This document shows positions 9,016 to 27,803 of a stretch of DNA of 32,000 bases, piece after piece (the first letter of the stretch is position 1; every line of letters begins with the position of its first letter). Under the pieces are notes generated by a model. That model ran no database searches. It was given only the letters and a program-made list of their open reading frames with translations, and was not told where the DNA came from. Source of the stretch: Mycobacterium simulans (GTDB lineage: Bacteria; Actinomycetota; Actinomycetes; Mycobacteriales; Mycobacteriaceae); contig NZ_OCVX01000005.1 of the NCBI RefSeq assembly GCF_900232995.1, positions 144,413 through 176,412 on the forward strand, written 5' to 3'. Position numbers and translations under genes: made by a program.

Positions 9016-9034
9016 TTGTGGGCCGCCCTTTGGT

Positions 9035-9943
<909 letters not shown>

Positions 9944-10037
9944 CTAGGTTACCTGGCGCTTTATCGCCGCCGCGAGCGTGCGTGTTTGTTCAGCGACACG
10001 CCGCGCGGGCAGTACATTTTCGCACCGTCGCGGCGGG

Positions 10038-10790
10038 TCAGGCTTCGGTCGCCAGCGGACTAGTCGCGACCTCGGTGCCGTCGGCCAAGGTCGAAACCTC
10101 GAAGTCGGCGAACACCGCGGGCGCGACGTCGACGAGCTGGCGCAAGCACTCGATGGCTAGCCGCCGGATTTCGACGTCGGCGTGTTCGCTGGCGCGCACG
10201 GCGATGAAGTGCCGCCACGCCCGGTAGTTGCCGGTCACGACGATGCGAGTTTCGGTGGCATTGGGCAGCACGGCGCGAGCGGCCTGGCGTGCCTGCTTGC
10301 GGCGCAGCACTGCGTTTGGCTGATCAGCGAACTTGGCTTCCAGCTTGGCCAGCAGGTCGGTGTAGGTGGCTCGGCTGGCGTCGGCGGCTGCGGTCAGGAT
10401 CTGGCGCAGTTCGGGGTCGTCCTCCATGCCGGGCGGCATCACGACCTGCGAGTCTTTCTCGGGCACGTAGCGCTGCGAGAGTTGCGAATAGGAGAAGTGC
10501 CGGTGCCGGATTAGCTCATGAGTACACGATCGCGAGATGCCGGTGATGTAGAACGACACACCGGCGTGCTCAAGCACCGAGAAGTGTCCGACGTCGATGA
10601 TGTGCTTGATGTAGCCGGCGTTGGTGGCGGTCTTCGGATTGGGCTTGGACCAGCTCTGGTAGCAAGCCCGGCCGGCGAATTCGACGAGCGCGGAACCCCC
10701 TTCCGCGTCGGTTGTCCAGGGCACATCCGAGGGTGCCAAGAACTCGGTCTTGGCGATGAGTTGCACGCGCAGCGGCGCGGTCTTTGCCAC
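10038..10790 (-). CDS. thyX: Flavin-dependent thymidylate synthase ThyX
   Basis: 250 aa with the ThyX signature [14 protein letters not shown] (RHR...S motif). Syntenic with Rv2754c. Confidence 0.95.
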
Positions 10791-10830
10791 GGCTGATCAC
10801 CTTAACGCGGCGACGGTACGCGGCGTGCCA

Positions 10831-11229
10831 TCAGACGAGTTCGGTCCGGCAGGTCAGTTGTGGCGCGCGGCTCAGGCGGGTGTCCGCGGTGAGCAGAGGA
10901 ATGTCGAGGTTGGTGGCCAGAGCCACGTAGAGCGCGTCGTAAAAACTCAAGTTGTGCCGCAAGCTCCACGCGCATCGGGCTAGTACCCCGACGTGTGGAT
11001 AGCGATCGTCGATCAGCGGGGCGGCGACGCGTAGCGCCGTATCGGCCTCCCTGGCGCTGATGTGCCCCGCCTGCTCGTGGCGGCGCAGCACGTTGCCGAC
11101 CTCGGCGTCGATCAAATGCGGTGCGTGCCGCCGCATCTCGGGCAGTCGCGCCCGCAGCGCATCGGCGGCGTCGGTCTTGGCGATCAAGGCCAGTACGAGC
11201 GCGGACGCGTCGATAACGTAGTCGTTCAC
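10831..11229 (-). CDS. vapC: PIN-domain ribonuclease toxin VapC
   Basis: 132 aa with PIN acidic residues in the expected contexts (VIDASALV, LIDAEV, FYDALYV, LLTADTRL). 4-nt overlap with the upstream antitoxin gene. Confidence 0.85.
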   Translation of the reverse strand: MNDYVIDASALVLALIAKTDAADALRARLPEMRRHAPHLIDAEVGNVLRRHEQAGHISAREADTALRVAAPLIDDRYPHVGVLARCAWSLRHNLSFYDALYVALATNLDIPLLTADTRLSRAPQLTCRTELV

Positions 11230-11462
11230 CGCCGGTCCGCGGCCAGATCGGCAAGGATAGATTCCCGCGTCGCCCCCGGCGTTTCGCTTTCCCTACGTAC
11301 GACCTCCATGGCTGCCAACGCCTCGGCCGCGGTGGGACGGCTCGCGAAGTCGATCACCCAGTCGCGCATGTAGGACTGGATGGAGCGTCCCGCCGCTCGA
11401 GCGCGCTTGCGAATCACCTCGTACGCGTCTTCGGGGATCTCCCGGATCTGGATTGTCGCCAT
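11226..11462 (-). CDS. vapB: Ribbon-helix-helix antitoxin VapB (FitA/Arc-like)
   Basis: 78 aa. MATIQIREIPEDAYEVIRKRARAAGRSIQSYMRDWV is an RHH N-terminus. Overlaps the vapC start by 4 nt. Confidence 0.8.
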   Translation of the reverse strand: MATIQIREIPEDAYEVIRKRARAAGRSIQSYMRDWVIDFASRPTAAEALAAMEVVRRESETPGATRESILADLAADRR

Positions 11463-12399: not shown

Positions 12400-13287
12400 T
12401 CACCAATTCAGGCCTTCGCCCGGCGGTCCGATCACTACCTTGCGCGGATCTTGTTGGATAATACCAACTTCAAATGCGTTGTCGCTGTAGATCTCTGCAT
12501 CGCTCTCCTTACCCTCCCCGTCGAATGCGATTTCATTGATCCGCAACGCAGTGGTCCACTTCCATTGCGCCATCCGCTCAACAACATCGCGCACCGAGAC
12601 TTGGCATTCCGCACAGTCATCGCAGGCGCTGTCATCGTCGACCTCGGCGTGCGCCTCACATCGCTCGAATTCGGTCGTGTAAACGTAGCCAGGGTCCCAG
12701 AGGCGCCCGGATGGAGGCCAGTCGAGTTCGATCCACTGCCCTGGTTCCAAGCCGAAGATGTCGATCGCCTTTTCCATCGCCGCCTTCTTGTCGGCGTTCG
12801 TCCAAGGCACATTCGGTGCCAACGCGACGTCCTCGATCGGATGAGAACCGGCGTACTCGACGGGATCGCGGACGGGTGCGACGGCTACATGGGCAGCATC
12901 GGCGCGGTCATACCAGTGGATTGTGCTCATCTCTCCGGTGTCGATGCGCGCGGGGTCGTGCGGCTCGGTGAACTCCGATTCGCGATAGGCCCAGCCGTTA
13001 CGCAGCTCATGCACGAGCCTGCGGGGTAAGCGGCCAACGATCTCGCGTTCGATCACGATATCTTCGGCGCGGGCATGCGCATCCATTGCGGCATTTACTG
13101 CTTCGGCGCCGTGGATACCGTTGGGGGCCAGGTCGTCTGCCTCGTCCCAGATGTCGCCGGCGGTCCGCTCCCGCTCCATCCGCAGCCAACTGACATGCCG
13201 GTAACGGGCCTCGGCATCGGCAAACTGGGGATCGCGTAGGTACTTCTCCTGTACGGTCTCGAATGCGCGAAATAGCCGATCAATCAT
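12400..13287 (-). CDS. Hypothetical acidic protein with C-terminal Cys cluster, translationally coupled to hsdR (function unknown)
   Basis: 295-aa ORF. Its ATG (13287) lies inside the last hsdR codons (GATGATTGA, 8-nt overlap). GC3-rich codons. Visibly D/E-rich. CEAHAEVDDDSACDDCAEC gives a C-x11-C-x2-C-x2-C pattern. I recognise no family. Confidence 0.7.
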   Translation of the reverse strand: MIDRLFRAFETVQEKYLRDPQFADAEARYRHVSWLRMERERTAGDIWDEADDLAPNGIHGAEAVNAAMDAHARAEDIVIEREIVGRLPRRLVHELRNGWAYRESEFTEPHDPARIDTGEMSTIHWYDRADAAHVAVAPVRDPVEYAGSHPIEDVALAPNVPWTNADKKAAMEKAIDIFGLEPGQWIELDWPPSGRLWDPGYVYTTEFERCEAHAEVDDDSACDDCAECQVSVRDVVERMAQWKWTTALRINEIAFDGEGKESDAEIYSDNAFEVGIIQQDPRKVVIGPPGEGLNW

Positions 13288-16200
13288 CGTCTTCCCCCTT
13301 CCCGATGCGGCGTGCTCGCTCGGCGTACTGCGGTGCCAATGCCTCCATCTGCTCGATAACCAACTTGATCGCTTCAGGCTGTTTGTCCGGAGGGTATCTG
13401 TACTTCACCAGTAGGCGCTTGATCGAAGACCGAAGCTTCGCACGTACGTCGTCGCGCACCGTCCAGTCGGTCTTGGTGTCGCGCTGCATCACACCGACCA
13501 GTTCGCGTGCGATCTGGGCGAGCACGTCCTCACCCTGAAGCTCGACGGCAGACTCATTTTGTGCCACAGCGTCGTAGAACGCCAGCTCGTCACGCGACAG
13601 GGCCGGAGTGAAGCGCTTACCCCGATTACCTTCAGCCGCGACATCTTTAGCCATTGCGATAAGCTCAGCGATCACCTCGGCGGAGGTGAGCTGCTGATTC
13701 GTATAGCGGCGCATCAGGTCGGTGATCCGGTCGGAGAATGCTCGCTGCCGCACCACGTTGTTCTTCGTGGCCCCTCCGAGTTCCTGGGTCAGCACCGCGC
13801 GCAGCGCCTCGATCGCCAGATGCGGGTGCGCGGCAGCCTTGGCCTTGGCTTCAAAGTCGGGGCCAAGGTCGGACAGCGACGGTTTCGGCAAGCCCGCTGC
13901 CTGGTAGATGTCGAGGATTTCGCCCGACGCGGTCGATTCCGCGACGAGACTAGACAACAGCCGTTTGATCTCGTCCGGGATCGGTTTGCCCTCGGCCCGC
14001 CGCTGCTCGGCGTCGAACTTGCCCATCCACACCCGGACCTGTTCGTAGAACTTGATTGTCGGCCGCCGGGACTCCAGGGCTTCGTTTCCGTCACACAGCG
14101 ACCACGCGCGGGCCAGGTGATTGGCCAGCTTGCGGAACCGGTCCCCGACGGTTGGCTCCCCGTCGGGAACCTGGTTTCCTGGGTTGGATGGTGACCGCAA
14201 GTGCGCGGTGAGGCCGATTGCCGCCCTCATCCATCCATGTTGCGGCTCATTGGCTTTCGATCTCCAGTCATATCCCGCGCACAGCTCGTCGAGCTGGCCG
14301 ACAAGATCTGTCGTCAGCTTGACCGCCGTGTCGATGTCCTTGCCGACGGGCTTAGTGTTGCGGTCGGTCTCAGTGTATTCGGCGAGTGCCGCGGCCAGGT
14401 TCTCCGCCAACGGCGCGTACGCGACCAGCAGCCCAGACGGCTTGCCTCGGAACGTCCGGTTGACCCGCGCCAGTGTCTGCATCAGCAGCGCGCCCTTGAG
14501 GGGGCGGTCGAGGTAGAGCGTGTGCAGCGGCGGCGCGTCAAAGCCCGTGAGCATCATGTCCTTGACGATCACGATCTGCAGCTCGTCCTCAGCGTCACGC
14601 AGCCGCTTCTGTATCACCTTGTTCTCGCTTTCGCGGCGCACATGTTTGGCGATGTTCCCAGGGTCCTGTGGGGAACCGGAGTAGACGACCTTGATCACGC
14701 CTTTGTCGATGGTGTCGCCGTGCCAGTCTGGTCGCAGCTTGCGGATCTCCTCATACAGCTGCGCGCAGATCTGACGGGTGGCACCGACGATGAACGCCTT
14801 TCCCGGAGAGGAGATGAACTTGCGCATCCCCTCGGATCGCGCTGCCCAATGGTTGACTATGTCCTCGGCCAGCGCCGCCAGCCGCTCGGGTGCGCCGTAG
14901 ATGGCGTTGATGACTGCGACCGATTTTTCGATCTGGGCGCGCTCCACGTCGTCGAGCCCGAGGGTTGCCTCGTCGACCGCATGGTCGAGGTCTCCTTCGC
15001 TGAAGTCCTCGGACCAGCCGACTTTGGCCAGTCGAGGTTCGAAATACACTGGTACGGTGGCGTTGTCAGCGACGGCGCGGGTGAGATCGTAGACGTCGAT
15101 GTCGGGGCCGAACACGTCACGAGTGTTACGGTCGGAGAACGAGATTGGCGTGCCGGTAAACGCGATGAACACGGCGTTCGGCAGGGCGTCGCGGATGTGG
15201 CGGGCGTAGCCGTCAAGATCGTCGTAATGACTGCGGTGTGCCTCGTCGACGATCACAATGATGTTGCGCCGCTCGGTGAGCAACGGGTGGTCCGCTCCGG
15301 ATTCGCGCTCCTCCTTGGTAAGACGGAACTTCTGCAGGGTGGTGAAGTAGATGCCACCGGTAGTTCGGTTGGACAGTTCGTCACGCAGCTGCGAGCGCTT
15401 GGTCATCTTCTGCGGTGATTCGTCGAGCAGCCGTGAGCGGTTGAAGGTCTCAAACAGCTGGGAGTCGAGCTCCTTGCGGTCGGTGATGACGACGATGGTC
15501 GGGTTTTTCAGCTTGGGCTGTTTGGCGACCAGGTGCGCGTAAAGCTCCATCTCCATCGACTTGCCGGAGCCTTGCGTGTGCCACACGACGCCGGCCTTGC
15601 CGTTGCTCTCGGCGGCTTCCACCGTCTTCCATACGGCTTTGGTGACCGCAAAGTATTGATGAGGCTTGGCGATTCGCTTGACCAGCCCATCGCCGTCTTC
15701 GTCGAACGCCGTGAAGTTACGTAGCAGTTGCAGGAACCGCTCGGTGTTAAACAGCCCGTCGATGAGAGTCTCGAGAGCAATCGGAACGTTCTCGTCGGCA
15801 ACCGGCTCACCAATGTTCACCACACGGCCGTCGTCGTCGACGTTCCAAGGCGCGAAGTGCTCCAGCGGAGTGAACGGCGTCCCGTATCGAGCGGTAATAC
15901 CGTCGCTGATGACCGTCAGGACGGCGAAACGAAACGCCATCGGGAACTCTCGCAGATAGGTCTGCAATTGCGCGTGCGCGGCTGCGATGTCCGCGTGCGC
16001 TGAGCCGGCCTGCTTGAGTTCGAAGATGCCGACGGGCATGCCGTTGAGGTACAGCACGACGTCGAAGCGCCGCTGATGATCCGCGGTGCGAATTGTAACT
16101 TGTTGCACTGCAAGGAATTCGTTGTCCTCGGGCCGGTGGCTGGCCAGCCTGATGGTTGGGTTCTGCTCGATGCCGTCGGCGTCGATGTAGCTGATGCCGC

Positions 16201-16489
16201 GATATCCATCTACGAGGATCTTGTGTAGCCGGTAGTTCTCGGCGATCGCGTCCTGTGACAGCGGTTGGATGATCGCGGCGCGGGCCTGGTCGAGGTATTC
16301 GGCCGGCACATCGGGATTCAGTTCGCGCATCTTGGCAAGCATGCGTTCGGGCAAGACTGTGTCGTCCCACGACTGGCGGCCACCCTCAGCGCCCGGCGCA
16401 ATCTGTTTTCCCGTGAGTTTTTGCCATTCGCGTTCGCCGAGTGTGTCCAGCGCGAGTTGTTCCCAGTCAGCTTCGCGGAATCCGGTCAT
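13280..16489 (-). CDS. hsdR: Type I restriction enzyme R subunit HsdR (intact)
   Basis: 1069 aa. N-terminal nuclease motif FDVVLYLNGMPVGIFELK (D...ExK). SF2 motifs HTQGSGKS (I), VDEAHRS (II, DEAH), FTGTP (III), QTLARVNR (VI). HsdR-type C-terminal helical domain. Confidence 0.95.
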   Translation of the reverse strand: MTGFREADWEQLALDTLGEREWQKLTGKQIAPGAEGGRQSWDDTVLPERMLAKMRELNPDVPAEYLDQARAAIIQPLSQDAIAENYRLHKILVDGYRGISYIDADGIEQNPTIRLASHRPEDNEFLAVQQVTIRTADHQRRFDVVLYLNGMPVGIFELKQAGSAHADIAAAHAQLQTYLREFPMAFRFAVLTVISDGITARYGTPFTPLEHFAPWNVDDDGRVVNIGEPVADENVPIALETLIDGLFNTERFLQLLRNFTAFDEDGDGLVKRIAKPHQYFAVTKAVWKTVEAAESNGKAGVVWHTQGSGKSMEMELYAHLVAKQPKLKNPTIVVITDRKELDSQLFETFNRSRLLDESPQKMTKRSQLRDELSNRTTGGIYFTTLQKFRLTKEERESGADHPLLTERRNIIVIVDEAHRSHYDDLDGYARHIRDALPNAVFIAFTGTPISFSDRNTRDVFGPDIDVYDLTRAVADNATVPVYFEPRLAKVGWSEDFSEGDLDHAVDEATLGLDDVERAQIEKSVAVINAIYGAPERLAALAEDIVNHWAARSEGMRKFISSPGKAFIVGATRQICAQLYEEIRKLRPDWHGDTIDKGVIKVVYSGSPQDPGNIAKHVRRESENKVIQKRLRDAEDELQIVIVKDMMLTGFDAPPLHTLYLDRPLKGALLMQTLARVNRTFRGKPSGLLVAYAPLAENLAAALAEYTETDRNTKPVGKDIDTAVKLTTDLVGQLDELCAGYDWRSKANEPQHGWMRAAIGLTAHLRSPSNPGNQVPDGEPTVGDRFRKLANHLARAWSLCDGNEALESRRPTIKFYEQVRVWMGKFDAEQRRAEGKPIPDEIKRLLSSLVAESTASGEILDIYQAAGLPKPSLSDLGPDFEAKAKAAAHPHLAIEALRAVLTQELGGATKNNVVRQRAFSDRITDLMRRYTNQQLTSAEVIAELIAMAKDVAAEGNRGKRFTPALSRDELAFYDAVAQNESAVELQGEDVLAQIARELVGVMQRDTKTDWTVRDDVRAKLRSSIKRLLVKYRYPPDKQPEAIKLVIEQMEALAPQYAERARRIGKGEDDD

Positions 16490-17621
16490 TGGTCTTCCCC
16501 TTGGTGCATGAGGGTTTCGGGCTCGTCAGTCAGCTCGGCTTCGAGTTCTTCGACCGTCGGCAGGCTGGATTCGAGTTCGGCAGGCAGGCTCTCGGTGATG
16601 GCGGTCTTCCACTCGGCGACACCGATCGGCGCGGTATAGCCGCGAAGGGCGTACTCGGCCACCACATTGTTCTTCGTTTTGCACAACAGCAGCCCGATGG
16701 TTGGCTTGTCGTCGGCATGCCGAGCAGCAGGTCGTCCACCGCGGCCATGTAAGTACCGAGTTGTCCCAGATAGCTGGGATCGAAATCGCCGACCTTCAAT
16801 TCGATTACGACGAAGCAGCGCAGATTCAGGTGGTAGAAGAGGAGCTCGGTGTAGAAGTCGGCGTCTCCGATTTCGAGGTGAACCTGCTTTCCCACGAAGG
16901 CGAACCCTCGCCCGAGTTCGAGCAGGAATCGTTCGACGCGGTCGATCAGCGCGCGTTCGAGGTCGCGCTCGCGTCGGAAGTCGGCGGTGCCGACGAAGTC
17001 GAACAGGTAGGGATCGCGGGCGGATTGCTGGACCAGATGGGAGTCCGGCGGGGGGATGGTGCGGGTGAAGTTTGTGATCGCGCGGCCGGCCCGTTCGTGG
17101 AACCGTCCCTCGATGTGGTGGACGAGGACGTTATGGCTCCATCCCTGCTCGACGGCGGCCTGGGCATACCAAAGTCGTAGGTCGGCACTGTTTAGCTTCT
17201 CCAGCAGCGCGATGTGATGGCGCCAGGGCAATTGTGCAAGCGGCGCTTGCACTTTGTCCGCCCGCGCAGCGGCGAAGGCTCTCATGTACTCGAGGTTGCG
17301 CGGTGAGAACCCCGAGGTGCCCAGGAACCGTTCACGCGGGTCGGCGGCCAGCCGATCGATGACCCGGGCTCCCCAGCCTTCGGTGTGTTGACGGGCGAGG
17401 ATCTCCGCAGCCACGGCCCAGGTTGTGCTGACGAGTTCCTGGTTGGCCGCCGATACCGCGCGTTGGCGTCCGGTTCGGACGCACGCGGCAACAGCGTCGA
17501 GCAGTTCGGGGTACCAGTCCGGGATGGTGGCCCGGGTGGGCGGCACCGGGAATCGGGCGTCTGCGCCGGCCCACGTCGGCCGCTCGTCGCGCTCGGTCAT
17601 CGCGCTCTCCGCAGTGCTCAC
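16486..17621 (-). pseudogene. DUF1016/YhcG-family PD-(D/E)xK nuclease, interrupted by a 1-nt frameshift near 16719-16735
   Basis: The 363-aa frame carries LFYHLNLRCFVVIELKVGDFDPSYLGQLGTYMAAVDDLL and then turns into junk (GMPTTSQPSGCCCAKRR...). The family continuation RHADDKPTIGLLLCKTKNNVVAEYALRGYTAPIGVAEW...LPTVEELEAEL is in another frame (the 66-aa ORF 16486-16686) and ends in an ATGA overlap with the hsdR start. Confidence 0.8.
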
Positions 17622-18781
17622 AGCACCTCGCTCACCGCGGCCTCGGCGTCCTTGACCCGGACCCTACCGGACATCAAGAGCGGGAGGAGTTCATCGCGAG
17701 TGCGCGCGAGCACTCGCGACTCTTTCCGCCGCTCATGGCACACCTGCCCGAGACCGGCGACCAACCCAGTCAGGTCAGGGCTCAGTTCGCGTACGTCCCG
17801 CACTTGGATGCCAAGCAAGTCATGGGGCCTTATCCGTTGATGGCTGCCAGATGTACCAGCGACCTTCTGCCGCAACTCTTCTGAGATTTCGGGCTGAGAC
17901 AACGCAGCCCACAGCAATGATGCGTCCACGGCGACGGACGTGAGGACGACGAACTCCGTACTTGCTAGCGGCATCTCCATGGGGAGTTCGCAAACGTTCC
18001 AAATACGAGGTATTCGCGGATTCAACTTGGAGAACAATACACACGGTTCTGACAGAGCAAATTTATTGCTCTTGATGGTTTTGCCATGAACGATCTCAGG
18101 CACAGCGCCGGCATCGAACGCCGGAAGACTAAAATGCGCAACGGAATCCCCGAACTGCTCAGGATAACGCGACGTGGTCGATTGACTCGCCAGAATGGAC
18201 AGCGGTGCGAACGCGGTAACCGAGTTGACAGTCGCGAACATTAGTGCCACTGCTGCCTCGACAACACGTTCGTTCGCGACGATCTTGTCATCGATGACGC
18301 CCAACACTTCTGCGATCGCCCGTTGTTCCTCAAACGAGGGCGCAGGAATCCGCACTTTGCGCAGTTCCGGTTGACGGATTCCGAGCACAGTTGTCCCGGT
18401 AGCCCGTGATGCCAGGTCAGCCTGGACATGGTCTGTCTGGAAGGCGTAGTAGAGGTACCGACTGTCAAGCTTTCCTGCAAGACCGCGCATGCAGAAGACG
18501 CGCTGCCCAATGACGATTGGTTCGTCGGTCCGAACCAACGCAACACGACCCAGCGGCGCCTCACTCGTCAGGACTACGTCGTTCGGTTCGGTCGGCCTGG
18601 GCATCCACTCCTTCCAGGTGTCGATCGAGGCGGTATTAGCAGCGGTTAGATCGAGACGACCCGCCCGAACCGACATACCGGAGACGACCGGGACGCCCGC
18701 CGGGCTGAATGGCGGGTTCTTTCCACGATTGTCGATCAATAGCTCGAGCGATTCGCCGAGAATTAACGAATCGGTTTTCAT
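17618..18781 (-). CDS. hsdS: Type I R-M specificity subunit HsdS (two TRDs)
   Basis: 387 aa. Central conserved helix EEQRAIAEVLGVIDDKIVANERV and C-terminal ESRVLARTRDELLPLLMSGRVRV. ATGA overlaps with hsdM (18778-18781) and with the DUF1016 gene (17618-17621). Confidence 0.9.
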   Translation of the reverse strand: MKTDSLILGESLELLIDNRGKNPPFSPAGVPVVSGMSVRAGRLDLTAANTASIDTWKEWMPRPTEPNDVVLTSEAPLGRVALVRTDEPIVIGQRVFCMRGLAGKLDSRYLYYAFQTDHVQADLASRATGTTVLGIRQPELRKVRIPAPSFEEQRAIAEVLGVIDDKIVANERVVEAAVALMFATVNSVTAFAPLSILASQSTTSRYPEQFGDSVAHFSLPAFDAGAVPEIVHGKTIKSNKFALSEPCVLFSKLNPRIPRIWNVCELPMEMPLASTEFVVLTSVAVDASLLWAALSQPEISEELRQKVAGTSGSHQRIRPHDLLGIQVRDVRELSPDLTGLVAGLGQVCHERRKESRVLARTRDELLPLLMSGRVRVKDAEAAVSEVL

Positions 18782-20397
18782 GACAACCGCTCCAGTTGCT
18801 CTCGGACCACCTTCTCCAACCGTGCCGACTCGTCGAACGCTGTTAACAGCTCTTTCGTCAGCCGCGCAATCTTCTCGTCGACAGGCTCGCCGTCGTCCTC
18901 AGCCTCTGGTGCACCCACATACCGACCCGGCGTCAGCGCATAGTCAGCAGCTTTGATCTCCGCTAAAGTGCTCGAATTGCAGAAGCCCGGAATATCCTCG
19001 TAGGTAAGGCCTTTCGCCGCCGCAGACGCCGATCCCCGCCAAGCGTGATAGGTGTCGCCGATCCGGACGATTTCCTCGTTCGTCAGCGCGCGCTCCGCGC
19101 GGTCCACCATGTAGCCCAGCTCCCGTGCGTCGATGAACAGCACCTGGCCGGCCCGGTCGGTCGAACCCTGTTTACCGGGCGTCTTGTCTTTGGCGAAAAA
19201 CCATAGACACACCGGGATTCCGGTGCTACGGAATAGCTGCGTCGGCAGCGCGACCATGCATGACACCAAATCCGCTTCGACAATCTGCGCCCGAATGTCG
19301 CCCTCGCCGTTGGAGTTCGACGACATTGAACCGTTGGCCATCACCACGCCCGCCTTGCCGCCCGGACCCAGCTTGGACAGGATGTGTTGGATCCACGCGT
19401 AGTTCGCGTTGTTGGCGGGCGGGACGCCGAAGCGCCAGCGCGGGTCTTCCTCATTTCGCGACCAGTGCTTGATGTTGAACGGCGGATTGGCCATCACATA
19501 ATCCATCTGCACGTCCGCATGCTGGTCGCGAGCGAAGGTGTCACCCCACCGCGCGCCCAGGCCCTTGTTGTCGATCCCATGAATGGCGAGGTTCATCTTC
19601 GCCATCCGCCAGGTCTCCTCGATGCTCTCCTGGCCGTAGATCGAGATGTCCTTCGGGTCGCCGTCGTGTTCGTAGATGAACTTCTCGGTCTGCACGAACA
19701 TGCCGCCGGAGCCACAGCACGGGTCGTACACCCGTCCCCGCGACGGCTCGAGCATCTCCACGATCACCTTGACCACGCTGGGCGGCGTGAAGAACTCTCC
19801 ACCGCGCTTACCTTCCGCGCGAGCGAAATTCCCGAGAAAGTATTCGTACACCTCTCCCATCAGGTCACGGGCGCGATGCTCACCTTGGCGGCTAAATCGT
19901 GCACTGTTGAAGAGGTCGATCAGTTCACCGAGCCGGCGCTGATCGATGTTGTCCTTGTTGTACAAGCGTGGCAGCGTTCCGCCCAGCGTGGGGTTGGCCT
20001 TCATCACCGCGTCCATTGCCTCGTCGATCAACTGCCCGACGTTCTTCGCAAGCTCGTCGCCAACCGCCGGTTTGCCTTTCGCGTTCTCCGCCAGGAACTT
20101 CCAGCGCGCGTTCGGGGGTACCACGAACACCCCGTAGCCCTGGTACTCTTCAGGCTCGTCGATCAGGTCCTCGATCTGAGACTCGTCCATCCCATCGGCG
20201 GCCAGTTCGGTTCGAATAGCTTCTCGCCGTTCGTCATACGCGTCCGACACGTATTTGAGGAACACCAGCCCCAAGATCACGTCCTTGTATTGGCTGGCCG
20301 AGAGAGACCCGCGCAGCTTGTCGGCGGCCTTCCAGAGCGTGTCCTTGAGCTGTTTCATGGTCGACGGCGCTTGCGGCTCCTTGTTCCTGGGAGGCAT
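18778..20397 (-). CDS. hsdM: Type I R-M N6-adenine DNA methyltransferase HsdM
   Basis: 539 aa. HsdM N-domain LWKAADKLRGSLSASQYKDVILGLVFLKYVSD, SAM motif VYDPCCGSGGMF, catalytic NPPF (VMANPPFNIKHW). RBS GGAAGGAA upstream of the ATG at 20397. Confidence 0.95.
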   Translation of the reverse strand: MPPRNKEPQAPSTMKQLKDTLWKAADKLRGSLSASQYKDVILGLVFLKYVSDAYDERREAIRTELAADGMDESQIEDLIDEPEEYQGYGVFVVPPNARWKFLAENAKGKPAVGDELAKNVGQLIDEAMDAVMKANPTLGGTLPRLYNKDNIDQRRLGELIDLFNSARFSRQGEHRARDLMGEVYEYFLGNFARAEGKRGGEFFTPPSVVKVIVEMLEPSRGRVYDPCCGSGGMFVQTEKFIYEHDGDPKDISIYGQESIEETWRMAKMNLAIHGIDNKGLGARWGDTFARDQHADVQMDYVMANPPFNIKHWSRNEEDPRWRFGVPPANNANYAWIQHILSKLGPGGKAGVVMANGSMSSNSNGEGDIRAQIVEADLVSCMVALPTQLFRSTGIPVCLWFFAKDKTPGKQGSTDRAGQVLFIDARELGYMVDRAERALTNEEIVRIGDTYHAWRGSASAAAKGLTYEDIPGFCNSSTLAEIKAADYALTPGRYVGAPEAEDDGEPVDEKIARLTKELLTAFDESARLEKVVREQLERLS

Positions 20398-20411: not shown

Positions 20412-22283
20412 CTATCTCTGGGCCGCGGCAACGCCGGGTGTGGTGGGTTGGGCATCAAGGGTGAGGGCGCCGGCGGCGACCCCCTCGATCAGGGCGGTCT
20501 TGAGATTTCGCGCGGCGTCGGCCCGCCGGCGCGCTTCGCGTTCGAACTCGTCAACCCGCTTAAGCGCCTCTTCGAGCCGTGCCGCCTCGTCACGGCGCAT
20601 CGCCGGAATGCTCCACGTTTTCCATTCGCTTCCCGCTGAGGCCATTTCGTTGATCACCGTGGCGAGCACCACCGGTCCGATCTCGGCCGATTCGCGCAAG
20701 CGGATGATTCGTGCGGGCGACGCGACCATGGCGCCGCCAACCGGGTCAACCCACGCCCGCGGGCGCGGCTTCTCGATGAAGATCACGTCGCCGGGGTCGG
20801 TGCGGGCCGCGCGCGGATACTTGCGCGCCGCGTCGAACGCGTCGAGGGCGATCGCTCCGGCAATTTCGGCGGGTAACACCGGAACCGTCCCGTCGGGCGA
20901 GGCGTCAGCGAAATTGATTCTGCTGCCACGCTTGACGGCGACGTGCTTGCGTTCGTGAAGCTCGCCGAGGGACTGGTGCAACAGCCGGAATCGCCCTGGC
21001 GAAGGTTCCACCAACACGTCCAGCGGCTCCAACGGTGATGTCGTCGTCAGCGTTGCGGCGTGCACGCGATCCAGGTGTGCGGTCGGGTCCGCTTCGCGCA
21101 GTCTTGGCGCGCGCACCCCGCGCGGTACTACCGAACCCGCGGCCAGCACGTTGCCCAGCTCGACGCGGCGAGCGTACCGGAAGGCGCGATCGTCAGTCTG
21201 CGCCAATGCCCCTGCGATGTCAGCCGCAATATCGCTGCGCTCAAGATTCTCGACGGCGCCCAGGTCGGCAACCCAGGGCCGCTGAGCATTGGCACCTCCC
21301 AGGCATATCCACGCCGCGAGGCTCTGCCGGTGCGCCTCTCGCCACAATCCACGCGGAAGTCGGAGTGCGGCAACCAAATTGCCAACCCGCAATGTCCGTG
21401 CGCGACGTTGCTGCAGAGTTCCCGCAAGCTCATCGGTCAGCGCGGCGGCGGGACCGAATAACCCCGTCACGTCGCCTTCGCTCAACGCGACGACTCCTTC
21501 GTCAGCACGGTCGAGCGCGTCTGCAATCTCCAAGCCGATAACGGATGACACCGAGATGCTAGACCGCGCGGTTGCCTCGTTGACGGCGATCCCGCGGATC
21601 ATCGCCCTGCGCCGAAGGGCGCGGTTGTTCGACACGATCTCAAGGTCGCATGCCGCGGCTATATCAAGCGAAACCGGTGAGTCGTCCGCCCGCATAATGA
21701 CCGGCTCGTGGTCGAGGTGCGTGGCCGCCGCCCCAACGATCCAGCCGAGCGACTCCACGGCGGCCGGTGTGAGCTCACGCGCACCTAGCACCCGCTTCAG
21801 ACGTCCTTGCTCCAAGCGCGCCAACGCGTCGGGCGGGCCGAACGACGCCTCCACCAGATCGTCGATGTAGCTGAGCACCGCGTCCGATGCCCGTAACCCG
21901 CGGATCTCACGCAGCAGCGAAACATCATCGGGGTCGAAACGCTCCGCCCGTCGCACCCGGTGAGCCAACGACGTGCCCCCGAGTTCTTCTCCGGTGACGA
22001 CATGCCAGCACAGCAGCGTCACCACGTCTTCCAGCTCCGCGCCGTGGGGCGCAGCAACCGCGGGTGCGTCATAGCTGTGTTCGGAGTTGTTGCCGCGGCT
22101 CGTGCGCGTCAGCCAGTCGACGACCTCATCGCGTGCGAACCTCGCGACACCGTCGATGACCTCCACTGGTTCCGGGAACGGAATCGACACGCCGCGAACG
22201 ATTGGCCTCTTTCGCCACATGCTGACCACAGGCCGGCGTACCTTTGCAAGGTCGGCGACGTCCTGCAACGTCAGCGTGTTCAC
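20412..22283 (-). CDS. Hypothetical 623-aa protein: N-terminal Xis/MerR-like HTH, degenerate (motif-less) gamma-MTase-like core, single TRD-like domain and C-terminal helix. First gene of the R-M operon
   Basis: GTG at 22283 preceded by GAGAGGAG. The stop is 14 nt before the hsdM ATG. HTH: MNTLTLQDVADLAKVRRPVVSMWRKR...ARFARDEVVDWL. MTase-like strings lack the SAM and NPPF motifs (see findings). TRD-like: GDVIFIEKPRPRAWVDPVGGAMVASPARIIRLR. The CDS call is solid; the domain reading is by eye. Confidence 0.75.
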   Translation of the reverse strand: MNTLTLQDVADLAKVRRPVVSMWRKRPIVRGVSIPFPEPVEVIDGVARFARDEVVDWLTRTSRGNNSEHSYDAPAVAAPHGAELEDVVTLLCWHVVTGEELGGTSLAHRVRRAERFDPDDVSLLREIRGLRASDAVLSYIDDLVEASFGPPDALARLEQGRLKRVLGARELTPAAVESLGWIVGAAATHLDHEPVIMRADDSPVSLDIAAACDLEIVSNNRALRRRAMIRGIAVNEATARSSISVSSVIGLEIADALDRADEGVVALSEGDVTGLFGPAAALTDELAGTLQQRRARTLRVGNLVAALRLPRGLWREAHRQSLAAWICLGGANAQRPWVADLGAVENLERSDIAADIAGALAQTDDRAFRYARRVELGNVLAAGSVVPRGVRAPRLREADPTAHLDRVHAATLTTTSPLEPLDVLVEPSPGRFRLLHQSLGELHERKHVAVKRGSRINFADASPDGTVPVLPAEIAGAIALDAFDAARKYPRAARTDPGDVIFIEKPRPRAWVDPVGGAMVASPARIIRLRESAEIGPVVLATVINEMASAGSEWKTWSIPAMRRDEAARLEEALKRVDEFEREARRRADAARNLKTALIEGVAAGALTLDAQPTTPGVAAAQR

Positions 22284-22350
22284 GGGCGCGGCGCTCCTCT
22301 CGGCATCGGATCGAATGTAGACCCTTCTCGGTCATCATTCAATGACATCT

Positions 22351-22370
22351 CTGATAAGCCGGCTTATCAG
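22351..22370. promoter_or_regulatory. Perfect 20-bp palindrome CTGATAAGCCGGCTTATCAG in the divergent promoter region (operator candidate)
   Basis: The sequence equals its own reverse complement. It lies in the 176-bp AT-enriched spacer between the 623-aa gene (start 22283, minus strand) and the 476-aa gene (start 22460, plus strand). Confidence 0.55.
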
Positions 22371-22459
22371 TATTCCAGTTGCATTCGATCTACAGACCTG
22401 CGGATCCTGTCTGCGGCGCAATACCGCACTCGGCGGTGGCGAGAAATCGAGGAGTAGCC

Positions 22460-23890
22460 GTGAACCACCCGCAGCGACAGGCATATTTCGACGAGACGAC
22501 GACCGCGGTCGTGATCGAAGGACTTACCGTGCGGGACAAGGACGTTGCGCGTGAGGCGCAACGCTGGACAACCGGTGCGCGAGGCCCGATCGTCGAGGAT
22601 CCCGACACGCTCAAGGCTGCCGATCTTTCGGAGTTCGTCGCCGAAGCGGTCAAGATCGGCGCGCATGCGCTGTCTGTGACTGGCCAGGCCCAGGAATCAC
22701 GAATGGTGGAGCAGATGCTGAAGGACGTCGGCGAGAAGGCGGCGGATTCGACTGCCAAGGCAGCCGAGGTCACCGAACGTGCGGTTAAGTCGGCATCCGA
22801 AATCATGGCAAAAGCCGCCAACGAGGCCAGGAAGGCAATCACCGAGGCCGATGCCACCAGCCGAAAGGAATTCACCGAATCGGTCGCGGCGGCCAAGAAT
22901 GACCTCAACGCCGAGGTGCGCCGCATGTTCGGCGGCGAACGCCCGGAGCTGCTGGACCGCCTGCAGCCCGTGCTCGACAAGTTCGCCACCGACCTCGACG
23001 CCAAGGTGAAGGCCGGAACCAGCGATCTGTTGACCAAGGCAGCCAAGCAATTCGACCCCACTGACCCCACCTCACCGATGGCGAAACATGCTGCGGATCT
23101 CGGGGCACGGCAAGAGAAGCTGACCGAGCTGATCGACAAAAACCACGCCGACGTAGTCAAGAAGGTCGACGAGCTGCTGACCACCCTGAAGGTTCAGGAC
23201 GCCAAAGCCAGCCTCGCCAAAGTCACGCCGATCAAAGGCGACACCTTCGAGAACCAGATCAACACCGTGCTCTCGGCGATTGCCGTCGGCCTCGGCGACG
23301 AGTACACCGATACCCGCGCGATCGTCGGATCGGTGGCCCGGTCGAAGAAGGGCGACGGCGTCTTGCATGTGGACGGCGACGCCGCCCGCGTGGTGATCGA
23401 GATGACTGACTCGGCGCGCGCCGGCTGGGCCGAGTACTTCGACGAAGCCGAGCGCAACCGCCTTGCCGTGGCTGCGCTCGGCGTCGTACGGACGAGCGAG
23501 CAGAACGGCGGCCAGTCCATCCGCACGCTCGGCGCTCGACGCATCGTGCTCGCGTTCGACCCCGGGTCAGATGATCCCGAGCTGGTGCGCACCGTCGTCA
23601 TGCTTCTGCGGACGGTCGCGCTCGCGGCGGCGACACGAAAAGGTGCGCACCAGATCGCTACGGCGGAGGAGAAAATCACCGAGGCCATCGCGCAGCTCAC
23701 TCGCTTGGACGAGGTGAAGAAGACCGCCGGGTCGATTCAGAAGAGCGCCATGAAGGTCGAAAATTCCTGCACCGGAATCAATTCCGGAATCCAGCGGTTG
23801 CTCAACGACGCACTGGCCGCCTTGACCGACGCGAACCCTGACACGGAGCCCGGTTCGACTGAAGGTCCAGTGCCCAACGCAGTCGCATAG
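22460..23890 (+). CDS. Hypothetical 476-aa protein: long Ala/Lys/Glu-rich helical (coiled-coil/apolipoprotein-like) N-terminal half, RmuC/DUF2130-like restriction-endonuclease-fold C-terminal half
   Basis: GTG at 22460 preceded by GAGGAG (22449-22454). Strong GC3 bias in this frame. C-terminal pattern KGDTFENQINTVL...KKGDGVLHVDGDAARVVIEMTDSARAGWAEYFDEAERNRLAVAALGVV. The upstream part of the 503-aa ORF has no RBS or coding look. Confidence 0.75.
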   Translation: MNHPQRQAYFDETTTAVVIEGLTVRDKDVAREAQRWTTGARGPIVEDPDTLKAADLSEFVAEAVKIGAHALSVTGQAQESRMVEQMLKDVGEKAADSTAKAAEVTERAVKSASEIMAKAANEARKAITEADATSRKEFTESVAAAKNDLNAEVRRMFGGERPELLDRLQPVLDKFATDLDAKVKAGTSDLLTKAAKQFDPTDPTSPMAKHAADLGARQEKLTELIDKNHADVVKKVDELLTTLKVQDAKASLAKVTPIKGDTFENQINTVLSAIAVGLGDEYTDTRAIVGSVARSKKGDGVLHVDGDAARVVIEMTDSARAGWAEYFDEAERNRLAVAALGVVRTSEQNGGQSIRTLGARRIVLAFDPGSDDPELVRTVVMLLRTVALAAATRKGAHQIATAEEKITEAIAQLTRLDEVKKTAGSIQKSAMKVENSCTGINSGIQRLLNDALAALTDANPDTEPGSTEGPVPNAVA

Positions 23891-24158
23891 GCGCTGACGA
23901 GCGATCCACGTGCGCGCAGCTCGAATATCGGCCTGGCTGAAAACAACGCGGACCGGTCGGCGTCGAAGACTTCGATCTGGATTCCGTAATCGTCCAGCAA
24001 ACGATCCACCAGCCGGCCGACGATAGCCGACGTGGCGACGATCACCGCGGCAAAACGTTGTCTTGTAGACGTAGACTTCGTTCTGCAGAATCGCGTGCTT
24101 GTCGTCGTCGGCGAGAAGCCTGTGGAGTTCTCGCAGAGTCACTTCCGCCGCAGCGCGC

Positions 24159-25310
24159 CTAGCCTCGGCGCACGATCAGCGCGACTGTGCGTTCGCTCTT
24201 GATATTGAGGCTCATGGTAGAGGGGTCTCGTTTTTCGGGTAGATCATCTGCCGCGTGGACATGCCCGTACATCAACAGCGGAAGAAGTGCATCGCGACGC
24301 GCCGACAACTGTGCGGATTCGGTTCGTCGCCCATGACACAACGCACCTAGGCTCGCGATTGCGCGCGCCGGCCCGGTAGCCAACCGCCGCACATCTCGCA
24401 CTCGGGTCTGCAGGAGTTCGTGGGGTTGGATTCGTTGGCGGCTTCCTGTCACGCCAGCAACCCGCTGATGGATAGTTGCCAAGACATCGGGTTGTCGTAG
24501 CGCTGACCACAAAGCGGAAGTATCAACGCCAAGTGGCCTCAGTACTACGAATTCCGTACTGGCCAAGGCCATTTCCGACGGCAGGCACGTAATATTCCAG
24601 ACTCGTGGGATTCTCGGATTCAACTTCGGGAATAGTACACACGGCTCCGACAAAAGGAACTTGGCGCTCTTGATTGTTCGACCGTCAACATGGCTTGGCT
24701 GGGTGCCGTCATCGAACGCCGGAAAGCTGTAGTGAGCGACTCTGCCGTCGAATTTCGGCGGAGAAAGATATGCGGTTGACCTCCTCGCCAAGCTCGACAA
24801 GGTCGCATAGTCACTGACTTGCTCGACTATCGCAACCATCAGCTTCTCGGCGGCCGCGATAACGCGGTCGTTAGTCGCTATCTTGTCGTCTAAAGCACCG
24901 AGAATTGCGCCAATTCGACGGCGGTCAGGTGCGGCGGCAGCCAGGACCACAACATTTCGAAGGATGCTCTGACTCAGCAGAGGCTGTCCCGACCCGGCGC
25001 GATATCGATTAAGTCCGCAGCTCTGCAGCGCGTAATACCAATATCGTGTTTCCTCGGGGTATTTGGCCCGGCAAACCAGCGCATTGTCGGTGACCCACGC
25101 ATCCGAATCGCAATAGCGCACGCTACCGCAATACGAACCAACCCGACCCACGACTATCAACGGGCCCTGCGCATTGCGTTCGGCCGCATACCCGATTGCC
25201 CCGTTGGCGCCATAGATGGGATAGCGACCGTGGGGCCCTCGCACTCGCGGAGTGCTTCCACAGGAAAAGTCGACGTGGTCACCCAAACGCACTTTCACCG
25301 CGCTGGCCAT
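24159..25310 (-). CDS. hsdS: Second, orphan type I specificity subunit HsdS (two TRDs, divergent C-terminus)
   Basis: 383 aa. Central helix DRRRIGAILGALDDKIATNDRV. TRD2 is paralogous to TRD2 of the hsdS at 17618-18781 (roughly 60% identical by eye); TRD1 is unrelated. The start ATG overlaps the ycaQ-like stop by 1 nt (TGATG). The C-terminus LLPLLMYGHVHAADD... departs from the usual LLPLLMSGRVRV. Confidence 0.85.
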   Translation of the reverse strand: MASAVKVRLGDHVDFSCGSTPRVRGPHGRYPIYGANGAIGYAAERNAQGPLIVVGRVGSYCGSVRYCDSDAWVTDNALVCRAKYPEETRYWYYALQSCGLNRYRAGSGQPLLSQSILRNVVVLAAAAPDRRRIGAILGALDDKIATNDRVIAAAEKLMVAIVEQVSDYATLSSLARRSTAYLSPPKFDGRVAHYSFPAFDDGTQPSHVDGRTIKSAKFLLSEPCVLFPKLNPRIPRVWNITCLPSEMALASTEFVVLRPLGVDTSALWSALRQPDVLATIHQRVAGVTGSRQRIQPHELLQTRVRDVRRLATGPARAIASLGALCHGRRTESAQLSARRDALLPLLMYGHVHAADDLPEKRDPSTMSLNIKSERTVALIVRRG

Positions 25311-26524
25311 CAGCCGGCCCGCTTGGTGGCCGTTCGCAACTCCACGGCCAGATCACCTCGGCTGGACACGGTGATCCCGCCCAGCCCCAACCATGACGCC
25401 ATCGACTCCAGCTCTGCTGTAAGAGCGTCGGCGACCCGGGCACCCGGTGCATCGGACTCGCCGAACGCGCCCACCACGTGCAGCGTGTTCGCGGCACGGT
25501 CGGCCTTGAGATCCACCCTCGCCACCAGCTGTCCGTCCAGCAGCAGCGGCCACACGTAATAGCCGTACTGTCGCTTTTTTGCGGGGGTGTAGATCTCGAT
25601 GCGGTAGTGAAAGCCGAACAGCCGCTCTACCCGGGGCCGGAAGAAGATCAACGGGTCAAACGGACACAACAACGCGGTGCCGCGATCCAGCCGTGGCACC
25701 GTCCGGCCTGCCCGCAGATAGGCCGGGGCCGACCAGCCCTCGACGCTCACCTTCTCAATCTCACCCGCGGCAACGAGGTCGGCGATAGCCGGTTTGATCT
25801 GCTGGGCCGACAACCGAAAGTAGTCGCGGATGTCGGCCTCGGTGCCCACACCCAGCGCGGTGGCCGCCCGCAGTGTGAGCTCGCGGACGGCTTCGTCGTC
25901 GTCGACCTGCCGGGCCAGCACGGCTGGCGGCAGCACCCTTTCCACCAGGTCGTAGTGGCGTGCGAAGCCGACCCGGGTGGCGGTGGTGAGCACCCCGGAT
26001 GCGAACAACGCCTCGGCGACCCACTTGGTGTCACTGCGCCCCCACCAGGGACCCTTAGCGCCACGGGGCTCGGCCTCCAGATGGGCCTCGATCTGCCCGG
26101 CGGTACTGGCCCCGAGTTCGGTGACGGCGGCGACGATATCGTCGGCCAGCTGCGGGTTGGCCTTGACGATCTGGGTGCCCCAGCGGCCGTGCCGGTACTG
26201 GCGCATCCGCCAGCGCAGAAGTGGCCAGTCGTCCACGGCCATCAACGCGGCCTCGTGCGCCCAGTACTCGACCAACAGCCGCGTCCTTGACGAGCCCCAC
26301 GCGGCCCGGTCCAGCACGTCGCGGTCATATGGCCCGAGCCGGCTGAACACCGGCGCATAGTGGGCACGCACCGCCACCGACACCGAATCCAGCTGCAGCA
26401 CCTGGATGCGCGAGATCAGCCGCTTGAGATGGGCACGGGTGATCGTGCCGGCCGGTTTGGGCTCGGCGAAACCTTGTGCCGCGATCGCCACCCGACGGGC
26501 CTGCGCGGCGGTCAAGGTGCTCAT
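25310..26524 (-). CDS. YcaQ/AlkZ-family (HTH_42, DUF1006) winged-helix protein, putative interstrand-crosslink DNA glycosylase
   Basis: [19 protein letters not shown]...[29 protein letters not shown]...[12 protein letters not shown] is typical of the family, including a Q-phi-D (QLD) motif. The ATG at 26524 overlaps the dfrA stop (ATGA); the longer ORF start at 26578 is rejected. Confidence 0.8.
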
Positions 26525-27006
26525 CGCCGCCGATAGCTGTGAAACCGGTACCGCAGCCCGGAGCGGGCGACGAGCCACTCCCCCGTCTCGCGCCGCCAGG
26601 TCTCGTCGAGCACGGGCGCGAGGGCGTCGTCGTCAACCTGCGGAAGGTCGATGTCGATCTCCGTGACTTCACATCGGGTGGCTTGCGGCAGTGCCAGCCG
26701 ATAGATCTGCGCCCCGCCAACGACCCACGTCTCGGGCTCGGTCAGGGCATCTTCGAGTGAACCGACTACCTCTGCTCCGTCAGCCATGAAGTCAGTCTGA
26801 CGGGTCAGTACGACATTTCGGCGGCCGGGCAGCGGCCGAAACCTCGCCGGCAAAGATTCCCAGGTCAGTCGGCCCATCACCACCGTGTGGCCCATAGTGA
26901 CCTGTCTGAAGTGCGCCAAATCCTCGGGCAGCTGCCACGGGATACCGCCCGCGCGGCCAATGACACCGGACGTCGACTGAGCCCAGATCAGGCCCAAGGT
27001 CGTCAT
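26521..27006 (-). CDS. dfrA: Dihydrofolate reductase
   Basis: 161 aa. [48 protein letters not shown] is the DHFR signature. 4-nt overlap with the thyA stop. Confidence 0.95.
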
Positions 27007-27803
27007 ACGGCTACGGGCGCTTTGATCGCCGGATGCGGGTGGTAGTTGTTGACGACGATGTCGTCGTACGTGTAGTCGAAGATCGAATCCCTAGGGGCCA
27101 GAACGAGTTCCGGATACGGCCTCGGTTCGCGCGTGAGCTGCAGCCGAACCTGATCGACGTGGTTGTCGTAGATGTGACAGTCGCCGCCAGTCCAAATGAA
27201 TTCGCCGACGTCCAGGCCGGACTGTGCGGCCATCATGTGCGTGAGCAACGCATAGCTGGCGATATTGAACGGCACGCCGAGAAACAGGTCGGCGCTGCGC
27301 TGGTAGAGCTGGCAGCTGAGCCGACCGGCGGCGACATAGAACTGGAAGAAGGCGTGACACGGCGGCAGCGCCATCTGCGGGATCTCTCCGACGTTCCAAG
27401 CCGACACGATGATCCGCCGGGAATCGGGCTCGGTGCGCAGCAAATCGAGCGCCGCGCTGATCTGGTCGATATGCTCACCCGACGGGGTCGGCCAGGACCG
27501 CCATTGCACGCCATAGATTGGGCCGAGATCGCCTGTGTCGCTGGCCCATTCGTCCCAGATGGTGACTCCATGTTCGTGTAGCCAGCCGACGTTGGAGTCG
27601 CCGCGCAGGAACCACAGCAACTCGTAGACCACCGACTTGAAATGCACTTTTTTGGTGGTGAGCAGAGGGAAGCCGGCGGACAAGTCGTAACGCAGTTGCC
27701 GGCCGAACAGGCTGCGGGTTCCGGTGCCAGTGCGGTCGGATTTCACCGCGCCCGTGTTGAGTACCAGACGCAGCAGATCCTCATAGGGAGTGGCGATCGG
27801 CAC
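27003..27803 (-). CDS. thyA: Thymidylate synthase ThyA
   Basis: 266 aa, GTG start. [25 protein letters not shown] (catalytic Cys) and [16 protein letters not shown] motifs. Confidence 0.95.

Follow-up and report, generated by a model that had tools for sequence, protein, structure and literature searches.

The coiled-coil protein ShdA of the Shield system is a membrane-anchored RmuC nuclease; it breaks down DNA, reduces transformation and confers protection from phage (PMC10270631). It has been reported inside type I restriction-modification (R-M) loci of Pseudomonas (PMC11090510). It has also been reported in DISARM-like operons. DUF2130 (PF09903, COG4487) is a member of the PD-(D/E)xK superfamily of unknown function (PMC3424549). 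We analyzed a 32,000-nucleotide stretch of the Mycobacterium simulans genome (the window), which encodes a 476-amino-acid protein, here named CC476, and its 623-amino-acid partner, here named P623. ShdA is the closest characterised analogue of CC476. By sequence profiles and a structural model, the C-terminal domain of CC476 is a divergent DUF2130-type PD-(D/E)xK domain, and its gene is in most loci divergent from a P623 gene heading a type I R-M operon. CC476 is a credible candidate for an accessory of bacterial anti-phage defence.

An AlphaFold2 (AF2) model of CC476 was built from 34 diverse homologues and has a mean predicted local distance difference test score (pLDDT) of 80. It comprises a small α/β domain, helices, a globular α-β-β-β-α-β domain and a C-terminal helix of 63 residues. 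The secondary structure predicted for the globular domain (helix 263-277, strands 281-284, 300-304 and 309-316, helix 323-334, strand 338-343), where pLDDT is above 90, has the αβββαβ core fold of the PD-(D/E)xK superfamily. PD-(D/E)xK nucleases dominate the Foldseek lists from the PDB and BFVD, with no PDB match individually significant. Sequence searches of the PDB with CC476 and with a profile of the domain gave nothing useful. The domain profile, A3, did retrieve the protein P0468 by hmmsearch (E=1.1e-10, 5.8e9 sequences), and hhalign aligned the two with 97.9% probability (E=5e-13). P0468 is a bona fide DUF2130 member, scoring 31.7 bits on the Pfam model for a gathering cut-off of 26.7. 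The best CC476 family member on the same model, P0169, scored 21.3 bits, below that threshold, with residues 272-492 aligned to profile positions 22-228. A first-pass annotation of the window, made from its sequence, had suggested an RmuC/DUF2130-like nuclease fold. The DUF2130 part of this suggestion is borne out by the profile link and the predicted topology; the RmuC part is not, as the window CC476 did not match PF02646 (RmuC) at E up to 10.

Site conservation was counted over 149 full-length CC476 homologues. Both acidic residues of the D...(D/E)xK motif are kept, as D299 and E314. Position 316, where the canonical lysine would lie, is Thr in 126 homologues, Ser in 15, His in 4 and Lys in 1, and a conserved D-S follows it. 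The invariant K297 and the nearly invariant K259 (147/149) lie near this variant site. The first-pass annotation had read the expected ExK as EMT and left catalytic competence uncertain. The reading is correct, and because Thr or Ser occupies position 316 in 141 of the 149 proteins, EMT is, judged by conservation, a selected variant of the motif and not decay. The four motifs picked out earlier (KGDTFE, KKGDG, VVIEMTDS and W..Y..EAERNR) are all present and form the most conserved columns of the family.

To see how CC476 genes are placed across bacteria, we used a species-level scan, with one genome per species, that took the D199-P206 break in the helical arm as its pattern and is limited to what this pattern finds. 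It returned 80 loci, almost all from Actinomycetota. An adjacent, divergent P623 homologue is encoded in 59 of the 71 loci with at least 2.5 kb of upstream sequence, and P623, hsdM and hsdR occur together in 52 of the 62 loci with at least 8.5 kb. Three loci (L030, L070 and L088) have at the P623 position a diverged protein with the same N-terminal helix-turn-helix (HTH), followed by hsdM. The cassette is found in Mycobacterium, Nocardia, Amycolatopsis, Kribbella, Nocardioides and other genera, with a mean identity to the window proteins of 80% for HsdM, 72% for HsdR, 58% for CC476 and 46% for P623. In a mirror-tree comparison of pairwise distance matrices, CC476 and P623 were correlated with r=0.89, and with a partial r of 0.74 after controlling for HsdM and HsdR. 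The correlation of CC476 with HsdR given P623 was about 0. Exceptional loci have CC476 beside other translocase- or helicase-nuclease restriction genes. The neighbours are GmrSD_N and PLD-SNF2 (L004), PLD-SNF2 and a Type ISP-like methyltransferase (L059), PLD-ResIII-DUF3427 (L074), an HNH-helicase (L018) or an SNF2 helicase (L033). The homologues are linked to P623 and type I R-M and are not scattered, in line with the earlier idea that CC476 occupies a position where accessory defence genes accumulate.

The 176-bp control region that the first-pass annotation had CC476 share with the P623 gene is indeed the gap between them. It contains a perfect palindrome of the form CTGATAAG-N4-CTTATCAG. 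In 62 loci the motif TGATAA-N6-TTATCA is found 100-135 bp before the CC476 start, where it is almost the sole copy within each 21-kb locus. Its half-sites are spaced 11 bp apart, which fits a dimeric HTH. At the same position, 10 loci have TGTTTA-N6-TAAACA (TGTTTAG/CTAAACA), a clade-specific variant of the form CTGTTTAG-N4-CTAAACAG. All 10 of these loci encode a P623 in which the HTH recognition helix reads RQAVTNWR instead of RPVVSMWR. The ten form a single clade and therefore represent one coordinated switch rather than ten independent events. Minor variants of the palindrome occur in L038/L091 and in L039. The palindrome is absent where CC476 lacks P623. Two metagenome contigs without CC476 (L091/L092) keep a variant, TGTTAAG-N4-CTTAACA, upstream of P623, and in L033 the palindrome stands at a truncated P623 remnant. 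Nocardia donostiensis (L044, 9826 and 20446) has CC476 and the P623-type I cassette about 8 kb apart and two palindromes, one for each. As far as sequence comparison goes, the palindrome follows the gene for the P623 HTH, not CC476, and co-varies with that HTH. The HTH of P623 most likely binds the palindrome as a putative operator.

A hairpin also recurs at 20-58 nt before the CC476 start codon; the signal is weak, with 41% of loci and 18% of shuffled sequences having one. Its stems differ among loci (e.g. GCCGC/GCGGC, GCATCAC/GTGATGC and CGCTGTCGA/TCGGCAGCG), and it may be an RNA structure of the 5' leader. Rfam and sigma-70 promoter and terminator scans of positions 22200-24250 gave nothing useful, the promoter scan not being designed for mycobacteria.

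The AF2 model of P623 (pLDDT 84) has the fold of a γ-class N6-adenine DNA methyltransferase with a domain like a target recognition domain (TRD). Foldseek matched it to a fused M-S enzyme (7eew, E=8e-14), to BpuSI (7e-11) and to HsdM proteins (1e-8 to 1e-6), with M.TaqI and CamA also among the matches. Neither motif IV, (N/D/S)PP(Y/F/W), nor the GxG of motif I is present in any of 21 P623 family members. P623 had no match to the Pfam methylase models (N6_Mtase) or to PADLOC models, and weak HTH_17/LacI matches were found at its N-terminus. Against the window's own HsdM and HsdS, the P623 profile gave no significant hhalign match, though the expected segments align. Because the fold matches and the catalytic motifs are absent, P623 is predicted to begin with an HTH, to which are joined a catalytically dead DNA methyltransferase, a TRD-like domain and a C-terminal helix. 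The 784-amino-acid protein at the P623 position of L030 has a weak Pfam match to N6_Mtase and may be a less degenerate relative.

We propose that CC476 targets DNA as an accessory effector of restriction systems and is co-regulated with them; we give this proposal about an even chance. CC476 would be a soluble and probably dimeric protein with a long helical arm. At its working end D299 and E314 could act as two metal-binding acids next to the invariant K297, with Thr or Ser in place of the lysine. Both divergent promoters would share the 20-bp palindromic operator, on which the N-terminal HTH of P623, a presumably dimeric pseudo-methyltransferase/TRD protein, most likely sits. CC476 would be produced in step with the type I restriction enzyme and, by analogy with ShdA, is most likely a second nuclease or DNA-binding layer against invading DNA. 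Of this picture, the architecture, the homology, the conserved pairing of the genes, and the operator with its HTH co-variation are shown here; DNA cleavage, dimerisation, operator binding by P623 and a defence phenotype are inferred.

Several observations weigh against this proposal. The defence role is argued by genomic association alone, and in L056 CC476 is encoded without any defence context. The pairing with P623 and type I R-M, strong across loci, is not reciprocal. P623-hsdM-hsdS is encoded without CC476 in L091/L092, where a PIF1/AAA_30 helicase gene takes the place of hsdR. In Candidatus Mycobacterium methanotrophicum (L093) the CC476 position is taken by two small genes, of which one gives a weak DivIVA-like match. 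Because P623/type I cassettes exist without it, CC476 would be dispensable for restriction. The window CC476 did not itself match DUF2130 (PF09903) at E up to 10, nor any Pfam, NCBIfam or PADLOC model at threshold, and the plasmid and phage collections searched held no CC476 homologues. Finally, the canonical lysine is absent in 147 of the 149 family members, and CC476 may for this reason lack nuclease activity or have an unusual one.

The replacement of the ExK lysine by Thr or Ser would also suit a pseudo-nuclease. CC476 would then be a non-catalytic DNA-binding or scaffold modulator of the neighbouring translocating restriction enzyme, for example to curb self-restriction, flag stalled complexes or bridge DNA. 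Such a role is consistent with P623 being likewise an inactivated enzyme, and with CC476 having as neighbours superfamily 2 (SF2) translocase-nucleases that already have a nuclease domain of their own. However, all 149 homologues have D299, E314 and K297, and the T/S-D-S is conserved too, a pattern like that of an active or metal-binding site that is still maintained. In some known PD-(D/E)xK enzymes the catalytic lysine has moved or been substituted, and this too speaks against a pseudo-nuclease, which we consider unlikely. Variation of the PD-(D/E)xK motif has been described (PMC3424549).

P623 mimics an M-S methyltransferase structurally while lacking the catalytic motifs, suggesting a different role for the pair. 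As a dead HsdM-HsdS look-alike, P623 could bait phage DNA-mimic anti-restriction proteins, and once bound it would quit the operator or free CC476, which would act as an abortive-infection effector. The two proteins co-vary, their rate of evolution is roughly double that of HsdM and HsdR, and the operator ties P623 to CC476 expression. Ronin, in which a catalytically irrelevant HsdMS guards an effector, provides a precedent (bioRxiv 10.1101/2023.04.06.535777). However, CC476 is found without P623 beside unrelated systems, and P623 also occurs without CC476. The TRD-like domain of P623 is conserved, not diversifying or hypervariable, which fits several models equally. We regard such a guard as rather improbable. 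A transcriptionally wired form of it on the type I enzyme, quite improbable in our view, would have a P623 dimer that mimics M2S sitting on the operator until an infection cue, e.g. DNA mimics, titrates it off. CC476 would then be derepressed, and possibly directly activated, as a back-up or abortive effector.

A coiled coil with a PD-(D/E)xK domain is an architecture common to RmuC and DUF2130, families with unknown or recombination-linked functions, and the CC476 gene is chromosomal only, as judged from the plasmid and phage collections. CC476 could accordingly be pictured as a housekeeping-type recombination or repair factor that merely travels with the R-M island, as proposed for RmuC. Its distribution is patchy for such a factor, with about 120 of 185,579 species representatives encoding it in the pattern-limited scan. 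It is also tightly linked to a cassette that spreads horizontally (HsdM is 70-95% identical across families), it shares an operator with that cassette, and where it is relocated it lands beside other restriction genes. We find a housekeeping role very unlikely. Many members are named Fis-family transcriptional regulators by NCBI and UniRef, but we give these database names next to no credence, as neither Fis/HTH_8 nor any other HTH was found in Pfam or NCBIfam (E up to 10) or in the AF2 model.

The frame of CC476 is open from a TTG at 22379 to the stop at 23890. The GTG at 22460 was chosen as the start; it agrees with the starts of homologues and is preceded by a ribosome-binding site, GAGGAG, at 22449-22454. 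GC by codon position is 0.67/0.45/0.80, the coding pattern of a high-GC gene, and the pattern is reversed in the antisense open reading frames (ORFs) that overlap it. M. simulans MSIMFI_03908 has the same protein sequence (100% identity), and a sequence database search returned 507 homologues. The CC476 ORF is a real gene, with the extent and strand given in the first-pass annotation.

The first 270 or so residues had been described as an uninterrupted run of helices. Long helices do make up residues 57-255, but residues 1-56 form the α/β domain, in which W36 and D55 are near-invariant, and the arm has conserved breaks at 158-161 and 198-205. The arm helices (57-157, 162-197 and 206-255) are rich in Ala, Lys, Glu and Leu. 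Pfam matches to the arm are weak and of the apolipoprotein type only. We set aside as compositional its matches to NCBIfam BrxC (18.7 bits for a cut-off of 400), V-ATPase E, the ATP synthase b subunit and Pfam apolipoprotein/ApoLp-III. No transmembrane segment was found in CC476, the maximum 19-residue Kyte-Doolittle hydropathy being 1.39 in a segment inside the globular domain. Many short homologues of about 210-270 amino acids (P0391-P0430) lack the N-terminal domain and the arm and are made up solely of the nuclease-like domain and C-terminal helix. Some of these may be fragments from short contigs, and at least one is from an isolate genome (P0430, Actinoallomurus vinaceus, 270 amino acids). 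Three viral BFVD entries (A0A1C9C4X3, A0A886NIA3 and V5LRB5) match the whole CC476 model in Foldseek with E about 1e-4. One of them is from Heterosigma akashiwo virus 01, and they may be viral coiled-coil/DUF2130-like proteins.

CC476 is transcribed divergently from a minus-strand operon with the order P623, hsdM, hsdS, yhcG/DUF1016 and hsdR (Table 1). The first-pass annotation had placed it between hsdM and an orphan hsdS. Its flanks are the P623 gene and a second hsdS, and it does not adjoin hsdM. Together with the α/β N-terminus and the assignment to DUF2130 and not RmuC, this flank is among what had to be corrected in an interpretation that largely stands. The split in yhcG/DUF1016 near 16722 reflects either a frameshifted pseudogene or an error of sequencing; M. 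vanbaalenii (L006) carries an intact copy. The two HsdS proteins are alike at 50.5% over 273 amino acids, the C-terminal two-thirds of the "orphan." Their N-terminal TRDs differ, and the "orphan" is therefore presumably an alternative specificity subunit. Other slow-growing mycobacteria (L010, L020, L049 and L064) have the same second hsdS downstream of CC476.

The cassette is located between thyX and dfrA-thyA, and the flanking genes in the window (7339-11254 and 25310-27803) are rnj, dapA and thyX on one side and an AlkZ-like gene, dfrA and thyA on the other. The M. tuberculosis H37Rv Rv2752c-Rv2764c region has this order too, with hsdS.1-hsdM, vapBC pairs and hsdS at the equivalent position. 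The orphan methylase locus of M. tuberculosis may therefore be a decayed version of the cassette.

Table 1. Features of the window and their positions, with strand (a dot where none applies) and the basis or remarks for each
Feature	Position	Strand	Basis or remarks
CC476 gene (M. simulans MSIMFI_03908), 476 aa	22460..23890	+	ORF, ribosome-binding site, start codon, 507 homologues, coding pattern of GC at third codon positions
N-terminal small α/β domain, aa 1-56	22460..22627	+	AF2 pLDDT 84-92 for residues 11-60; conservation
Long helical arm, aa 57-255	22628..23224	+	AF2 pLDDT about 70-78; composition
Helical-arm break D199-P-T-D-P-T-S-P206	23054..23077	+	D199, S205 and P206 invariant or nearly so
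Predicted DUF2130-like PD-(D/E)xK-fold domain, aa 256-395	23225..23644	+	AF2 pLDDT above 90; profile link to P0468; Foldseek
K259-G-D-T-F-E264 motif, start of helix α1	23234..23251	+	K259 147/149, G260 149/149
K297-G-D299, with D299 the "PD" aspartate	23348..23356	+	K297 and D299 both 149/149; aligned to CKKGD of P0468
E314-M-T316, variant (D/E)xK motif	23399..23407	+	E314 149/149; aligned residues in P0468 are LEAK
C-terminal long helix, aa 396-458	23645..23833	+	AF2; inside the span of the DUF2130 model in related proteins
Shared divergent control region, 176 bp	22284..22459	.	Length 150-210 bp in most loci
Operator-like perfect palindrome CTGATAAGCCGGCTTATCAG	22351..22370	.	Unique in window; 0 expected by chance
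Small stem-loop ACCGC-ACTCG-GCGGT, presumed CC476 5' leader	22423..22437	+	Weak signal
P623 gene	20412..22283	-	AF2 pLDDT 84; Foldseek; weak HTH_17/LacI matches
hsdM	18778..20397	-	Pfam N6_Mtase 1e-117, HsdM_N
Operon hsdS	17618..18781	-	Pfam Methylase_S
yhcG/DUF1016 PD-(D/E)xK nuclease gene, frameshifted near 16722	16495..17621	-	Pfam; tblastn in two frames
hsdR	13280..16489	-	Pfam HSDR_N, SWI2_SNF2, T1RH-like_C
Second hsdS, downstream of CC476	24159..25310	-	Pfam Methylase_S; 50.5% identity over 273 aa

Should CC476 and P623 turn out to partner the type I enzyme functionally, they would define a widespread five-gene actinobacterial cassette that is in no current defence catalogue. A DNA-targeting role for CC476 would offer a first lead on what the DUF2130 branch of PD-(D/E)xK proteins does and would extend beyond Pseudomonas the Shield-type idea of a coiled-coil nuclease as an R-M accessory. 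The operator and HTH, with their natural specificity switch, form a testable regulatory circuit. Were P623 instead a decoy, the pair would represent a new class of anti-anti-restriction immunity in Actinobacteria, mycobacteria included. The cassette would also be relevant to mycobacterial genetics and phage therapy.

CC476 had not been recognised in the first-pass annotation as part of any named defence system, and it matches no PADLOC model at E up to 1. A description of the cassette is likewise absent from PADLOC, Pfam and the searchable literature. Like CC476, DUF2130 proteins have a helical region followed by KG...E, KKGD, a strand at the ExK position and EA.RNR, and the profile-level homology, found through P0468, takes in the C-terminal helix. 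CC476 differs in falling below the Pfam threshold, in the Thr or Ser at the ExK lysine, in its extra N-terminal domain and in its helical arm of about 200 amino acids. We know of neither a function nor an R-M linkage for DUF2130. RmuC (PF02646) resembles CC476 in its N-terminal coiled coil, its restriction-endonuclease-like fold and a G-x-x-x-E helix motif before the core. It differs in that its model finds no match in CC476 (E up to 10) and in keeping the canonical D...(D/E)xK.

ShdA and CC476 share a coiled coil followed by a PD-(D/E)xK-superfamily domain, and both are single accessory genes in defence islands. Like ShdA, CC476 is in a defence context, beside type I and PLD-SNF2 systems. Unlike ShdA, it has no transmembrane helix, is DUF2130-like and not RmuC, has no PADLOC match and lacks the lysine at ExK. 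It is also encoded in Actinomycetota, not Pseudomonas, and is paired with an HTH pseudo-methyltransferase and an operator. Ronin and PrrC/EcoprrI resemble the present locus in having an effector gene genetically linked to methylase and specificity proteins that resemble those of type I R-M and need not be catalytic. Ronin, however, has as its effector RonA, a tiny membrane protein of 61 amino acids, and lacks HsdR, while PrrC is an ABC-ATPase anticodon nuclease. The present locus has a complete hsdMSR, and its look-alike, encoded separately, is an HTH-bearing M-TRD fusion predicted to be catalytically dead. Controller (C) proteins are, like P623, HTH proteins encoded first in an R-M operon, with a palindromic operator at their own promoter. 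They are small Xre-type proteins (about 80-100 amino acids) of type II systems, whereas the HTH of P623 is the N-terminus of a 623-amino-acid pseudo-methyltransferase and its putative operator also faces a divergent effector gene.

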